Under the pieces are notes generated by a model, which had not been told where the DNA came from, did not search any database, and saw nothing but the letters and a program-made list of their open reading frames with translations. The translations under genes were made by a program, and so were the position numbers. A DNA stretch of 10,785 bases from a virus (Duplodnaviria; Heunggongvirae; Uroviricota; Caudoviricetes). The stretch is taken from the IMG/VR virus record IMGVR_UViG_3300029647_000054, positions 1 to 10,785 of that record; one strand, written 5' to 3'. Shown piece by piece: positions 140 to 9,757 of the stretch. Numbering within the stretch: the stretch's first letter is position 1; the number at the start of each line of letters is the position of its first letter.

Positions 140-295
140 TTACTCCTCAGGTTCGTAAGCTGTGAAGACAGTGACCTCCGTCTGGCCGGTTCGGATTCGT
201 ACCTCGCAGAGGTCTTTCCTCGTTACCAGTGCCGTCACAATGACGGTAATACAGATGACGATCAGGGCGACTAACATCGCCTTTTGCTGCTTCAT
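140..295 (-). CDS. hok: Hok/Gef family type I toxin (51 aa, HokD/HokC-like small membrane toxin)
   Basis: In-frame internal ATG at 295 of the 70-aa track ORF; product MKQQKAMLVALIVICITVIVTALVTRKDLCEVRIRTGQTEVTVFTAYEPEE closely matches my recollection of HokD/HokC; SD AGGAG about 7 nt upstream; single TM helix. Confidence 0.85.
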   Translation of the reverse strand: MKQQKAMLVALIVICITVIVTALVTRKDLCEVRIRTGQTEVTVFTAYEPEE

Positions 296-352
296 AGCCT
301 GCTTCTCCTTGCCTTTCGGCGTGTAAGAGGCTAACCTACATGTGACTAGCAT
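140..352 (-). CDS. mok: Mok-like in-frame upstream reading frame that couples hok translation (70 aa)
   Basis: ATG at 352 in the same frame as hok, as recalled for chromosomal mokC/hokC pairs; existence as a separate regulatory frame is inferred from the hok/sok paradigm. Confidence 0.5.
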   Translation of the reverse strand: MLVTCRLASYTPKGKEKQAMKQQKAMLVALIVICITVIVTALVTRKDLCEVRIRTGQTEVTVFTAYEPEE

Positions 353-410
353 GAAATTGGCCTCAGATTAATGTTAAGCGTCCTGCAAGACGCATAATGT
401 TAACTGGGGC
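340..410 (+). ncRNA. sok: Putative Sok-like antisense RNA overlapping the mok start region (approximate)
   Basis: Inferred from hok/sok architecture only; candidate promoter TTGCCT (309-314) - 17 nt - TAACCT (332-337) on the plus strand; no clean terminator seen, ends not determined. Confidence 0.25.
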
Positions 411-510
411 TTTTCTCTGTCTGCCTTACGGTGGCATGCCCGAGGCAGACAGCCTCAAGCACCCGCAGCAATTCTACTTAACTCTCGCTTTACCGCAAAC
501 CGTTTTTACC

Positions 511-532
511 CGATATGGGAATTCCCATATCG
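511..532. repeat. Perfect 22-bp palindrome CGATATGGGAATTCCCATATCG
   Basis: Read directly: 11-nt arms exactly reverse-complementary with no spacer; not followed by a U-run on either strand. Confidence 0.8.
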
Positions 533-540
533 TAATGAAT

Positions 541-645
541 TCAGTTCCCTAGTCGATCCATCAAAAACACAACCAGGCAGTAAACACCCACAACAGCAAT
601 AACAGCCAGCGCACCTTCCATTGCCAGTGAGATATCATCCGACAC
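541..645 (-). CDS. Small hydrophobic peptide (34 aa, GTG start), single predicted TM helix
   Basis: Not in ORF track (too short). SD AAGGAGG 4 nt upstream of GTG at 645; product VSDDISLAMEGALAVIAVVGVYCLVVFLMDRLGN; start codon uncertain (alternative ATG at 621). Confidence 0.3.
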   Translation of the reverse strand: MSDDISLAMEGALAVIAVVGVYCLVVFLMDRLGN

Positions 646-680
646 ATTCCCTCCTTTGGTGTTAATCCCGGCGAACGCTT

Positions 681-764
681 TTACCCACACCGACAAATAA
701 CATATACTAAAAAAGCGATAGCCATAGCAACGCCTGTAATTGCAAATGCTTCAGGCCAGATCAT
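681..764 (-). CDS. Small hydrophobic peptide (27 aa), single predicted TM helix
   Basis: Not in ORF track. ATG at 764 overlaps the TGA of the upstream DUF551 gene (ATGA); strong SD GGAGG with 7-nt spacing; product MIWPEAFAITAVAMAIAFLVYVICRCG. Confidence 0.4.
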   Translation of the reverse strand: MIWPEAFAITGVAMAIAFLVYVICRCG

Positions 765-1663: not shown

Positions 1664-2164
1664 GGAATCATTCCATCGCTTTACTTCTTCACGAATTACG
1701 TCAATGCATTCTTTCGAATCCATTAGGTAATCTTCATCAAAAAGACGTTCCTGTTCGTTTTCTATCGCAACAATGATTGCTTCAACTAACTTTTGTGCCT
1801 GAGAACCACTTTCTAACTCTGCAATGCGCTGTTTTACGGTATCAAGTTCAATCGATAATTTTTCCAACTGCTCTTTATGCTTCTTGTATTCCTGATATGC
1901 GTGCCAGGACTGACCTTTGCGCACACTATCAGTAATATCAGTAATCTGTTCTGGTGTTAGCGTAGTCAGTGGCTGTGCTGGGAAAATCAGCACTTTCCCG
2001 GAATCCCAATCAAAACCAGCGTGAATTGACTGAACCTCAACTGATGGTGTTGAACCGATGCGACCAGGCGAATGAACAACGATCGTTACATCCATATCTC
2101 GACGATGGCTGTGGTTGCTGGACAAAATACGATTCACCAACTCAGAAAATTTGGAAAATTTCAT
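1631..2164 (-). CDS. Hypothetical protein (177 aa) with coiled-coil C-terminus ending AGIRIKGE
   Basis: ATG at 2164 overlaps the upstream TGA (ATGA), SD AGAGGG at 7 nt; the track ORF's extra 43 N-terminal residues would overlap the upstream gene; last 8 residues identical to the Ea22-like protein. Confidence 0.6.
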
Positions 2165-2484
2165 GTTGATCCCTCTTTCTCTCCCCGGATAATTCTGTTG
2201 CACACATCCACACACTCGTCGCAGATGAAAACGGCGTCCCCAGCAATTAACTTTTTGACGGCGTACTGGGATTTGTTGCAGAAGCTGCAACAAAGTGTTC
2301 GCCTGACTGATAAGGATGGAGCGCCAGATGTCAGCCGCTCCATATCGTTCTTGCGACGCAATATCACACGGCTGAACTCAACCAGTTTCTCCGGGGATAT
2401 CTCCTCCTCCGTAGCGAGCGTCTCTAGTCGTTCGAGTATGTTGAAGGCTTTTTCCTGGGTAATAGCAGAATGCGATGTGGTCAT
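2161..2484 (-). CDS. Small protein with ClpX N-terminal zinc-binding-domain-like C4 zinc finger (107 aa)
   Basis: [38 protein letters not shown] aligns with ClpX N-terminus ([37 protein letters not shown], from memory) with identical CxxC-x18-CxxC spacing; ATG at 2484 with SD AAAGGAGAG. Confidence 0.75.
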
Positions 2485-2485
2485 C

Positions 2486-2518
2486 TCACTCTCCTTTGAT
2501 GCGAATGCCAGCGACGCG
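2486..2518. repeat. Module-junction repeat, copy 2
   Basis: TCACTCTCCTTTGATGCGAATGCCAGCGACGCG; same coding/SD content as copy 1. Confidence 0.8.
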
Positions 2519-3181
2519 TGGCACATTAACTTCCACGATGCGCACATTTGGTTTGTACATCTCAATCGCTGTCAGCCAGTCAGCGCCAGTCATGCGCTTT
2601 TCTGCATCGCCATTAGTCCACTTAACCGGTACACCAATAGCCTTCATCGCGATTTCTATTTCCCCGGCAATGGTGCTTTTTCCGCAACCAGTAAAACCAG
2701 ATACAACGACCAGAACTTCACCTTTGGCTGGTTTTATTTCCCGCGCTTCCAGTTCTGCTATGCGCTTACTTCCATCCGAGATAACACCTTCGTAATACTC
2801 ACGCTGCTCGTTGAGTTTTGATTTTGTCTCCTCAAGCTCAACGCGCAGCTTCCCTACCGTTAACGCAATATCCTCGTTCTCCTGGTCGCGGCGTTTGATG
2901 TATTGCTGGTTTCTTTCCCGTTCATCCAGCAGTGCCAAGACAGCAGTCGGATTGGCCTCTGCTATGAACTCAGCGTTTGCATAAGCCTGAGCATCTGTTT
3001 CAACCAGGCAGTTAACATGACATTCTGCAATCACGCCACCGGGTTCTCCTTTCCATTTTTGACAAACAAAAACTCCTGTTAAATTGCCGTGCTGGTTAAC
3101 AGATGTATGCCCTACGATGTAGCTTCCTTTAGTTGCTTTCTCTGCCTTTTCACGCAGTGCCTGATAGTTAATCTCGCTCAC
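2486..3181 (-). CDS. Ead/Ea22-like protein with C-terminal Walker A (P-loop) motif (231 aa, GTG start)
   Basis: N-terminal region with [20 protein letters not shown] motif typical of Ea22-like proteins as I recall them; central coiled coil; [10 protein letters not shown]-loop; GTG overlaps upstream TGA (GTGA) with SD GGAGGA at 6 nt. Confidence 0.7.
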
Positions 3182-3402
3182 TCTTCATCCTCCAAGTCGG
3201 CAACGGCGTCCATCACATCAGAACCGCGAATAACCTCAAAAGCACGGCAGGCCATTTGAAATACCAGTTGCTCTTGCGGGTGAGGAGACTCCCAATATTT
3301 GAAGCCTGGGCGATGCGTGTACCCCATCATTGAATAAAAATCACCAGCAAGCTTAATCGCGGCATCGACAAGCTCTCTGTTAGTCATTCTTTTTCCGCTC
3401 AC
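3178..3402 (-). CDS. Hypothetical small protein (74 aa, GTG start)
   Basis: GTG at 3402 overlaps the upstream TGA; SD AAGGAGG at 6 nt; no family recognised. Confidence 0.5.
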   Translation of the reverse strand: MSGKRMTNRELVDAAIKLAGDFYSMMGYTHRPGFKYWESPHPQEQLVFQMACRAFEVIRGSDVMDAVADLEDEE

Positions 3403-3749
3403 TGGTTGCCTCCTTTGCGAAGCTGGGCGGCTAACTCATCACATATGTGCGTCAAAGAACAAAGTTTGATTGATGGATGTTCGCGCATCATCTCTACCCC
3501 CTGCGCCCGCACTTCAGACAGGAAAGCATCGGTGGCTGGCATATTTCCTGTTGCCTTCATTGCCTCCAAAATAACCAGAACGCCATCTCGCCCAATCTCC
3601 TCGCAGATAACCTCGGTGCTGTCGCCAACAACATCGCAAAATGCCTGAACTGCTTTACGAGCCAGCGCATCTTCCGCCCTGTGAAACGCCTCGCGGTTGA
3701 AATTTTCATATCCCGTCATTGGACCGGCAATATAAACTCTGACCCTCAC
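3399..3749 (-). CDS. DUF4406-like (nucleoside 2-deoxyribosyltransferase-like fold) phage protein (116 aa, GTG start)
   Basis: N-terminal VYIAGPMTG motif characteristic of DUF4406 as I recall it; rest of protein did not match my memory of the family; GTG overlaps upstream TGA with SD AGGAGG at 7 nt. Confidence 0.55.
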   Translation of the reverse strand: MRVRVYIAGPMTGYENFNREAFHRAEDALARKAVQAFCDVVGDSTEVICEEIGRDGVLVILEAMKATGNMPATDAFLSEVRAQGVEMMREHPSIKLCSLTHICDELAAQLRKGGNQ

Positions 3750-4138
3750 TCCATCACCTCCTGAAAGTTTCCCCGATAGAACGCCAGCACACGCTGCATA
3801 ACTTCGCTCCTCCTGCTCTCACGACAAATTATGTTCTGCCGTCTGTTGTAACGACGTATTTCTCCGTCAGGTAACTTTCGAATCAGTGTCGGGTCAGCAG
3901 CCTTCTCCGGTGTCTTACGCCATACGCGATACGCCTGCTCTGATGGAAATACCCCGCAACCAGAGAGCCAGACATCACCACTGGCCGCAAGCGCACCAGA
4001 TAAACGACGAATAGCGGTCTTACTGACACCCGTTTTATCTGCCAGTTGTCGAAAAGTTTCTCGTCCGCTCAGGCGCACGAATTCCACAATGCGCGCCTTC
4101 ACTTCTTCCCGCTCTTCTGGTGTAAATACTTTTGCCAT
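3746..4138 (-). CDS. Putative HTH DNA-binding protein (130 aa)
   Basis: ATG at 4138 with SD GGAGG at 5 nt (track start at 4153 is TTG); helix-turn-helix-like segment FRQLADKTGVSKTAIRRLSG. Confidence 0.6.
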   Translation of the reverse strand: MAKVFTPEEREEVKARIVEFVRLSGRETFRQLADKTGVSKTAIRRLSGALAASGDVWLSGCGVFPSEQAYRVWRKTPEKAADPTLIRKLPDGEIRRYNRRQNIICRESRRSEVMQRVLAFYRGNFQEVME

Positions 4139-4153
4139 AAGCGCCTCCGGCAA

Positions 4154-7265: not shown

Positions 7266-7766
7266 ATGAAAAGAAAACCCCTGTCAGAGATCGACCTGCA
7301 AGCCGCCCAGAGACTGAAAGAAATCTGGACGACGAAAAAAACTCAACTTGGGTTAACCCAAGAGCGTGCGGCAGAAATTCTGGGTTTTTCGACACAAGGG
7401 GCAGTAAGCCATTATCTAAATGGTCAGACACCTTTAAATCTAGAGGCTGTTATCAAGTTCGCTGGGTTGCTACAAGTTCCGCCTGAGTCAATTAGACCAG
7501 ATATGGCAGACTTGTTACGAATTGTAAGGATGTACCCCCAAGAACTGCAGCAGGATAATGTTGTCGCTTTACCCGCAGAGATGGAACAATCGGAAAACGA
7601 ACTTCCGTTTAATATAGAACCTATAGAGCGAGATTTGATCCAGACGTTCAGGGCTTTCCCAAAAGAAGACAAAGAGAAAATGCTTAAGGAAATGAAGGAG
7701 AAAAAAGAATCAATTGAAGAAACCGTTGCGCGGTGGCTAGAGGCGCAAAAAGGTCTTCGCGCCTAA
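7266..7766 (+). CDS. paaR: CI-like HTH repressor, regulator of the three-component TA module (PaaR-like, 166 aa); no S24 peptidase domain
   Basis: N-terminal HTH (LGLTQERAAEILGFSTQGAVSHYLNG); divergent from Cro-like gene; directly upstream of antitoxin-toxin pair; C-terminus too short and lacks a LexA-like autocleavage domain. Confidence 0.75.
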   Translation: MKRKPLSEIDLQAAQRLKEIWTTKKTQLGLTQERAAEILGFSTQGAVSHYLNGQTPLNLEAVIKFAGLLQVPPESIRPDMADLLRIVRMYPQELQQDNVVALPAEMEQSENELPFNIEPIERDLIQTFRAFPKEDKEKMLKEMKEKKESIEETVARWLEAQKGLRA

Positions 7767-8304: not shown

Positions 8305-8320
8305 CTTACCTCCAAAAAAC

Positions 8321-8362
8321 AATAGCATTACTATTTACAGAATAAAATAGCAGTGCTATTGT
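8321..8362 (+). promoter_or_regulatory. OL-like region: two 15-bp palindromic operators plus a PL-like promoter driving the dicB-type operon
   Basis: Operators AATAGCATTACTATT (8321-8335) and AATAGCAGTGCTATT (8346-8360); TTTACA (-35, 8334-8339), 17-nt spacer, TATTGT (-10, 8357-8362); mirrors the OR architecture. Confidence 0.65.
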
Positions 8363-8538
8363 TTATTCATCACCCACCCTCCCCACAGAATGCAGGGCAA
8401 TACTTCGAGTTACCCGGCAGTGGTCAGGGGTTAAGTAGCCAGCCCGAGGCGTATGAACATGACGGCGGGAACACTTTGTATAACAGCGCAGCAGGTTTTT
8501 GTTCCGCTACCCCGGCGTTAAGGGGAAATGAGGTCAGC

Positions 8539-9699: not shown

Positions 9700-9757
9700 C
9701 CATGTGTAGTATTTGGTGGCATCAGTTCTACTCCGTGACTGCTCTGCCACCCTTTTT
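9700..9757 (+). ncRNA. dicF: DicF-like small RNA (ftsZ-targeting sRNA family) with intrinsic terminator
   Basis: TTTGGTGGCATCAGTTCTACTCCGTGACTGCTCTGCCACCCTTTTT closely matches my recollection of K-12 DicF, with compensatory stem changes; sits directly upstream of dicB as in Qin. Confidence 0.7.

Follow-up and report, generated by a model that had tools for sequence, protein, structure and literature searches.

The palindrome CGATATGGGAATTCCCATATCG at positions 511-532 is very probably an orphan remnant of a KilA-N/BstA-like gene. An intact gene of this kind occupies the same slot in related prophages and carries the same 22-mer within its coding sequence. The window, that is, the whole stretch of viral DNA analysed here, comprises 10,785 nt and retains the palindrome and a few adjoining nucleotides of the gene. 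A protein-binding or decoy site recognised by KilA-N proteins is the candidate function, to which we give nearly an even chance. In a full-text search of the literature, neither this sequence nor a palindrome within KilA-N or BstA genes came up. The conserved element, as found in the window, is previously undescribed, while the BstA family and the concept of DNA-based self-immunity were already known.

The minus-strand operon of the window is of the lambdoid replication-region type. It encodes an HTH regulator, YdaT, DnaT-like O, P, DUF1627, DUF977, DUF4406, Ead/Ea22, ClpX-zf, DUF551 and a small hydrophobic ORF, and is followed by hok/sok. On the plus strand, the right end of the window holds an HTH repressor, a ParE/RelE toxin, DUF1391 and DicF. 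The DicF sRNA was matched by Rfam at 9701-9752 of the plus strand (62 bits, E 6e-12), which assigns the window to a lambdoid prophage of the Qin/dicB type. E. coli S19-651 shared 99.7% identity with positions 1-995, beyond which the window was mosaic relative to that strain. To the right of the joint, the module consists of the small hydrophobic ORF that ends the operon (541-696, minus strand), which had no Pfam match; RefSeq calls it as 541-645 in the 99.7%-identical genome. Positions 761-1438 of the minus strand form a single ORF of 225 aa with DUF551 at its C-terminus. RefSeq splits its counterpart in S19-651 into two partial DUF551 pseudogene pieces, and the ORF of the window appears to be a fusion of fragments from two DUF551 genes. 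To the left of the joint lies the hok/sok type I toxin-antitoxin module (140-510, minus strand) with the hok coding sequence at 140-295 and the sok/leader region, matched by Rfam sok, at 290-464. A putative hok promoter lies at about 475-502 of the minus strand; its hexamers were read by eye and were not called by a promoter scan. The KilA-N domain was absent from all ORFs of the window.

The palindrome has two 11-nt arms with 100% complementarity and a spacer of 0, so that the perfect, spacer-less 22-bp palindrome described in the earlier note was confirmed with all 11 pairs. It lies just beyond the last minus-strand ORF and upstream of hok, as that note had placed it, with a gap of 8 nt to the stop codon at 541-543 and not the 9 nt given there. 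It is the longest perfect palindrome of the window. The second longest, CTTGGGTTAACCCAAG (7347-7362, 16 bp), is located within the plus-strand HTH repressor ORF at 7266-7766. An inverted repeat with 23-nt arms, 87% complementary and 8 nt apart (AAAAAACAATAGCATTACTATTT / AAATAGCAGTGCTATTGTTTATT), is found at 8314-8367, with the ParE/RelE toxin ORF on one side and the DUF1391 region on the other. Perfect palindromes with arms of at least 11 nt appeared in 0.2% of 2000 first-order Markov simulations of the window, corresponding to about 0.002 per window. The exact 22-mer was detected in 63 species-representative genomes of many phyla, compared with about 0.03 expected by our own arithmetic for 596 Gb, and in more than 120 viral contigs. 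A chance origin was rejected on the basis of the simulations and the species matches.

No T or U run follows the palindrome on either strand; the flanks are GGTAAAAACGG on the minus strand and TAATGAATTC on the plus strand. A terminator pattern scan of positions 1-1000 called the hok 3' terminator at 54-71 as the sole terminator-like site. An intrinsic, Rho-independent terminator was rejected, since a T tract is missing after the stem, and this agrees with the earlier description of the site as not a typical intrinsic terminator. As a single strand, the palindrome would fold into a 9-bp stem with a 4-nt loop, with -14.5 kcal/mol for RNA (z -3.7) and -8.2 kcal/mol for DNA. At the gathering threshold, Rfam assigned no family to the palindrome, either in the window or in five palindrome-array loci, and a known RNA family was rejected.

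The boundary of the hok locus was analysed by megablast of window positions 380-700 against 5,426 complete E. coli genomes and 50,697 phage records. Many matches stopped at window positions 507-522, and homology among hok loci therefore ends at the palindrome. The hokW locus of phage 933W, which has no palindrome, diverges from the window right after 'accgttttta', at about position 508. E. coli UTAK-3 has half of the palindrome only, fused to an ORF6N-domain gene. About 109-120 hok loci were sampled by their leader sequence, which leaves the sample unbiased for the presence of the palindrome. The exact 22-mer was present in about 28% of them and a degenerate copy in about 11%, while about 60% had none. 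A deletion of 1 nt affected seven loci with near-identical flanks. Other degenerate copies had an end mismatch, an AATC or GATT centre or truncations, and the hok-adjacent variant CGATGTGGGAAGTCCCGCATCG showed one compensated pair and one wobble. The modules abutting the palindrome comprised at least four different types on the right-hand side and three subtypes on the left-hand side, and its distance to the hok leader and promoter differed by 19 nt between flank types. As most sampled loci are without the palindrome and its spacing varies, it is not a hok/sok component; it also lies outside the Rfam sok model (290-464), and an integral hok/sok element was rejected. Its place beside hok is incidental. 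The earlier note had listed a module boundary as one option, and the end of hok homology and the different right-hand modules bear this out. It had also held that absence or degeneration of the palindrome in close relatives with the same flanks would speak against its proposal. This was found in part, namely as the copies with a 1-nt deletion and as truncated or half copies. Among unique hok-adjacent variants, 3 of 22 palindrome positions vary compared with 3 of 12 in the neighbouring remnant, and extra constraint is not demonstrable beside hok. The right ends of the hok-adjacent remnants lie at +24 nt (ORF6N type), +12, 0, -3 and -8 nt.

The earlier note missed the origin of the element, which is a conserved intragenic palindrome of a KilA-N/BstA-like gene found in this slot in sister prophages. 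In E. coli A17 (L433), hokD (2423-2578, minus strand) is followed by a KilA-N gene (3101-3874, plus strand) and then by the operon. The A17-type gene (protein WP_201476912.1 in A17) encodes 257 aa on the opposite strand and fills the slot between hok and the last ORF of the operon. The same arrangement of hokD, KilA-N gene and operon was present in about 100 other genomes, and 104 genomes matched a locus comprising the gene and its flanks (L187) over at least 80% of its length. Codons 59-65 of the A17 gene carry the 22-mer, encoding DMGIPIS. In blastn searches, window-type loci (L001, L069, L073 and others) matched nt 774-806 of a KilA-N gene locus (L313) over 33 nt with 93.9% identity. Type-2 hok loci matched the KilA-N gene with 97% identity, and ORF6N-type hok loci over 39-44 nt with 88-92% identity. 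Traces of the gene in the window consist of the palindrome and about 11 nt only. These are taatgaattca at 533-543 on the plus strand, where the gene has gaattaattca (E-L-I-Q), and they overlap the stop codon (541-543) of the minus-strand ORF. Both homology beyond the palindrome and an intact gene in the same slot of related prophages were thus found for the assignment as a remnant.

The KilA-N/BstA-like protein matched the Pfam KilA-N domain (E 4e-27), PHROG 6287 'BstA abortive infection system' over its full length (E 3e-89) and, with its C-terminal domain, the PADLOC BstA model (E 3e-21). Alignment with the C-domain of BstA from Salmonella phage BTP1 by hhalign gave a probability of 97.8%. 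The gene in A17 (L433, 2423-3903) forms a self-contained cassette, with AT-rich DNA upstream and a terminator-like hairpin (agccagccccataagggctggtt) of its own. The cassette is oriented divergently from hok and convergently with the phage operon. Hok only, hok with KilA-N and hok with the orphan palindrome are alternative states of one slot.

Constraint on the 22-mer was evident inside the gene family. In roughly half of the genome matches, the 22-mer belonged to a conserved ORF of about 250-270 aa and encoded D-M-G-I-P-I-S. The DNA of family members was collected via degenerate peptide patterns, giving a sample unbiased in codon choice. At the homologous site of 58 unique family genes, 22 were self-complementary in 11 of 11 pairs and 15 more in 10 of 11. 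In the background control, 42,263 other 22-nt segments of the same genes, 11 of 11 pairs occurred in none and 10 of 11 in one. Double changes were observed in nine of the 11 pairs, as measured on the gene-borne sites rather than on the orphan copies. The covariation score was 0.309, compared with 0.130 ± 0.013 for shuffles, of which 0 of 500 reached 0.309, and with at most 0.095 for slid partners. Compensatory pairing beyond controls, as expected of a structured element under selection, was thus found in the gene family. Examples of compensated variants are CGAAACGGGAATTCCCGTTTCG, CGATGCGGGAATTCCCGCATCG, GTCTGCGGGAATTCCCGCAGAC and CGATATCGGTATACCGATATCG, and the core of the palindrome also changes symmetrically, from GGAATTCC to GGTATACC. 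Across lineages, the encoded amino acids change at mirror positions, giving ETGIPVS, DTGIPVS, DIGIPIS, DAGIPAS, DVGIPTS, VTGIPVT, SMGIPID and SAGIPAD. The covariation would equally fit an RNA or single-stranded DNA hairpin. Template-switch correction of a quasi-palindrome could contribute to the perfect symmetry without any function.

In 29 species from many phyla with the exact 22-mer in the gene, the flanks were 53% identical and third codon positions 40%. The six synonymous sites within the 22-mer, including a rare ATA codon, are therefore held by selection or continual correction and not by recent ancestry; recent horizontal transfer as the cause of the cross-phylum identity was rejected on the same values. 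At the homologous position, the identical 22-mer was also present in KilA-N genes of Saprospiraceae and other Bacteroidota, whose proteins differ in their C-terminal domain; there, another frame is used, encoding RYGNSHI. Since the palindrome is enriched in the family, covaries and is read in another frame in Bacteroidota, the conserved object is DNA or RNA and not the peptide. Compared with the solved APSES/Mbp1 domain, the DMGIPIS stretch is an 11-residue insertion. The identical 22-mer is shared by family members with only about 52-54% protein identity to the E. coli protein. The family sub-branch QTGLPE...QLIH is without the palindrome. Among other KilA-N subfamilies, no palindrome was present in the genes of HK544, PaV-LD, Klebsiella phage 2 and Moraxella Mcat20, and the LoVEphage KilA-N gene had a degenerate one. 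Orf11 of Pseudomonas phage D3 (L453), a distant KilA-N gene, carries a different palindrome with 9 of 11 pairs, AATACCTCGGATTCGAGGGATT at 512-533, homologous to the DMGIPIS site. Among those compared, it alone had such a different palindrome at the homologous place, and generality across other KilA-N subfamilies was rejected. The D3 gene suggests that a palindrome in this KilA-N loop may be more general than the one sequence studied.

A search for the palindrome elsewhere, proposed in the earlier note, revealed copies in E. coli genomes, in other phages and in KilA-N genes across phyla. A 30-nt query centred on the palindrome matched 978 of 5,426 E. coli genomes, nearly always in unannotated intergenic DNA. 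The median was two orphan sites per genome, with about four in O157:H7, each site being reported on both strands. The KilA-N/BstA-like gene itself was present in 137 of the 5,426 genomes. More than 25 virulent Dhillonvirus genomes contained the exact 22-mer in an intergenic position after the helicase-primase gene, among them those of welsh, rolling, PNS1 and Teewinot. Related Dhillonviruses had no 22-mer or had a 22-mer with a duplicated unit of about 31 nt. Escherichia phage Teewinot (L435, OK499993.1) held a 53-bp tandem repeat in 5.1 copies (37661-37930 and 38006-38053); other Dhillonviruses held one 53-bp unit or none. Each unit of the Teewinot repeat carries GGGAATTCCCATATCG, and one unit has the perfect 22-mer. 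The array begins 13 nt past the end of the helicase-primase gene (37648) and is followed downstream by a 12-bp repeat of the GCGGGACA type and several ATTGGTTGC motifs; the region looks like an origin or iteron region. No KilA-N domain was found among ten Teewinot proteins, including those flanking the array. Casjensviridae phages were represented by a Providencia phage with the imperfect variant CGCTATGGGAATTCCCATGTCG about 100 nt from cos and by a Klebsiella phage with the variant CGATATGTGGATCCCCATATCG, in which the centre pair A-T is changed to G-C in a compensated manner.

Short arrays were also present outside enteric hosts (L017/L061, L042, L053 and L120), with 22-nt palindromes that differ in their arms and have the GGAATTCC core in common. 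They originate from Alcaligenaceae, an uncultured proteobacterium and Tolypothrix, and L120 is a viral contig. The arrays are located at 2528-2704 in L017, 7879-7973 in L042, 4420-4496 in L053 and 13856-13913 in L120, with palindromes about 20-78 nt apart. Two tandem palindromes of L120 are translated in-frame as DMGIPIS...VTGIPVS inside a 413-aa ORF. A Calothrix MAG (L007) had two variant palindromes just upstream of a palindrome-bearing BstA-like KilA-N gene (locus 2005-4148). This gene is preceded by a ParA-like gene and a small ORF, which suggests that the context may be a plasmid. The gene beside a palindrome pair in phage contig L068 was rejected as KilA-N, with no Pfam match and an hhalign probability of 0.4%.

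A site for a dimeric DNA-binding protein, an option already raised in the earlier note, is plausible and the leading functional idea. As the KilA-N domain is a DNA-binding fold, the palindrome would most likely be a duplex site for a KilA-N dimer. Recognition as a duplex is also suggested by the dominance of one sequence across phyla, by the central AATT, which is mostly self-complementary, and by Watson-Crick pairs outnumbering wobble pairs. The KilA-N/BstA-like gene is gone from the window, where the 22-mer and about 11 nt survive at a mosaic joint. Under the proposal, a dimer of the KilA-N protein would bind the palindromic duplex DNA carried in its own gene. A phage with a stand-alone copy, such as the window prophage, Dhillonvirus or Casjensviridae, might then titrate or placate a resident KilA-N/BstA-like defence protein. 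The decoy copy would allow the phage to escape replication arrest in cells expressing this protein. The palindrome is possibly an anti-BstA decoy similar to aba of phage BTP1. According to Owen et al. 2021 (PMC8585504), aba overlaps bstA, confers self-immunity as DNA rather than as RNA or peptide by suppressing BstA, differs between protein variants and acts better at high copy. This reported dependence on copy number would be in line with the amplified array of Teewinot. Sharing of the 22-mer by proteins of only about 52-54% identity to the E. coli protein argues against strict cognate specificity.

A broader version of this proposal is rather unlikely as a whole. Here, the 22-bp palindrome with its GGGAATTCCC core would be a portable DNA 'password' for KilA-N proteins, the window copy included as a phage anti-defence decoy. 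With the site embedded in a permissive loop of the KilA-N coding region, protein and site would be inseparable. It would be conserved from Proteobacteria to Cyanobacteria and Bacteroidota in any reading frame, and temperate and virulent enterobacterial phages would carry single or amplified decoys against KilA-N/BstA-like abortive infection.

Against a decoy, the copies beside hok erode: seven loci have a 1-nt deletion, others are truncated to -3 or -8 nt, and about 60% have no copy at all. The aba element of BTP1, which is no palindrome and has a different place in its gene, also speaks against it. A functionless scar is therefore a strong and serious rival for the window copy, with a considerable chance that nevertheless stays well below even. 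The copy would be an inert remnant of the deleted KilA-N/BstA-like gene and would persist through recent deletion and spread of the prophage lineage. The right boundaries of the remnants, from +24 to -8 nt, form an erosion series of the kind a scar would leave, and the 1-nt deletions between near-identical flanks and the many hok loci without the element are consistent with it. The gene able to exert selection is present in only 137 of the 5,426 E. coli genomes. A two-sided removal of the gene with both end points hugging the palindrome is, however, unlikely without selection or palindrome-directed breakage. The 22-mer is also the most conserved island between variable flanks of at least four types. 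Exact or mostly paired orphan copies occur in unrelated virulent phages without any other trace of the gene, and one of these copies was amplified five-fold.

An RNA hairpin is improbable. The 9-bp stem-loop, at the 3' end of the operon or in KilA-N mRNAs, would block 3' exonucleases, be cut by an RNase or insulate the hok leader from read-through. It is stable on both strands (-14.5 and -14.3 kcal/mol, z about -3.8), and this equality makes orientation uninformative for an RNA role. The covariation supports pairing, and G-T combinations occur as two GU and two UG at pair 1 and six GU at the centre pair. A hand count of mismatches in family variants, about nine G-T compared with four A-C, clearly favours neither RNA nor DNA. 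Several orphan copies lie right after stop codons or near terminators (L058, L177 and L185). Yet the element has no U tract and no Rfam family, and Watson-Crick pairs outnumber wobble pairs. The central 4 nt, the would-be loop, are mostly self-complementary (AATT, TATA and, in the Klebsiella phage, GATC), and the prevalence of a single sequence across phyla suggests sequence-specific recognition of a duplex.

Even less probable is a recombination or breakage hotspot, in which the palindrome would drive double-strand breaks or short-homology exchange and mark joints for this reason, with no product-related function. Homology breaks at the palindrome edges in many loci, deletions end within or beside it, and duplication and amplification have occurred around it in Dhillonvirus. 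Long palindromes are recombinogenic, for example through SbcCD cleavage, but arms of 11 bp are short for instability of this type, and a hotspot leaves the compensatory preservation inside an intact gene across phyla unexplained. An operator of the hok promoter or a host transcription-factor site, with a protein at about -43 to -65 tuning hok transcription, would fit the position of the palindrome about 9 nt upstream of the putative -35 read by eye, but was rejected as the least probable reading, since the element is missing from most hok loci including hokW of 933W, varies by 19 nt in its spacing to the leader and recurs in contexts without hok, and we know of no E. coli factor with this palindrome as its site.

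If the binding-site reading is true, the short and sharply defined palindrome provides a concrete candidate for the recognition target of KilA-N defence proteins, and one that can be put to the test. A large branch of the KilA-N/BstA-like genes has conserved it, and phages that are otherwise similar differ naturally in whether they carry it. If phages use it as a decoy, it would be a simple marker of phage counter-defence. Inside the genes, a nucleic-acid signal dictates protein-coding sequence across phyla: rare codons are fixed, mirror amino acids co-vary and the frame is shifted in one lineage. For annotation, the finding accounts for a palindrome that recurs without annotation in about 18% of complete E. 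coli genomes.

Compared with known systems, the palindrome resembles Rho-independent terminators and REP-type hairpins as an intergenic stem-loop right after the last ORF of an operon. It differs from them in having neither a T tract nor an Rfam match, in being identical across phyla rather than species-specific and in occurring in-frame inside genes. The hok/sok elements (tac, fbi, ucb/dcb and the sok promoter) are comparable in that the palindrome adjoins the hok leader, but it is outside the model of sok and hok leader at 290-464 and missing from most hok loci. Like the mosaic boundaries of lambdoid phages, it sits where the homology of related prophages switches between alternative right-hand modules. 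Ordinary joints, in contrast, are not conserved palindromes and are not common to genes of other phyla or to unrelated virulent phages.

The closest published relative in concept is aba. In BTP1, it comprises 63 bp at the 5' end of bstA, namely 29 bp upstream and the first 34 bp of the gene, with CCCGCC direct repeats and no palindrome (PMC8585504). Owen et al. 2021 (PMC8585504) describe as unknown how aba interacts with BstA and what makes a phage sensitive. The gene-borne palindrome is similarly short and overlaps the coding sequence of a gene with KilA-N and BstA C-domain. Unlike aba, it is a perfect palindrome of 22 bp at codons 59-65 in a distant branch of the family, its decoy role is proposed from comparison, and some of the KilA-N genes that carry it have another C-terminal domain. 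The BTP1 protein aligned with the palindrome-bearing family over the C-domain only (31.7% identity, tblastn), and the corresponding site of BTP1 bstA had no comparable palindrome. Identity with the published aba was rejected, as the sequence is unrelated and the architecture of 63 bp with CCCGCC repeats at the 5' end was not found. A location within a bstA-family locus applies to the gene-borne copies; the window, none of whose ORFs is KilA-N, has an orphan copy. The window palindrome is thus outside the aba family as defined and at most a new variant of the aba-type idea.

Binding sites inside the gene of their own binder are known from the lambda ori iterons within gene O and from parS within parB/spo0J. 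In these systems as in KilA-N genes, a palindromic or near-palindromic site in the coding sequence constrains the codons and extra copies exist elsewhere. Binding has been demonstrated for the iterons and parS; for the KilA-N palindrome, it is suggested by the comparison of sequences.
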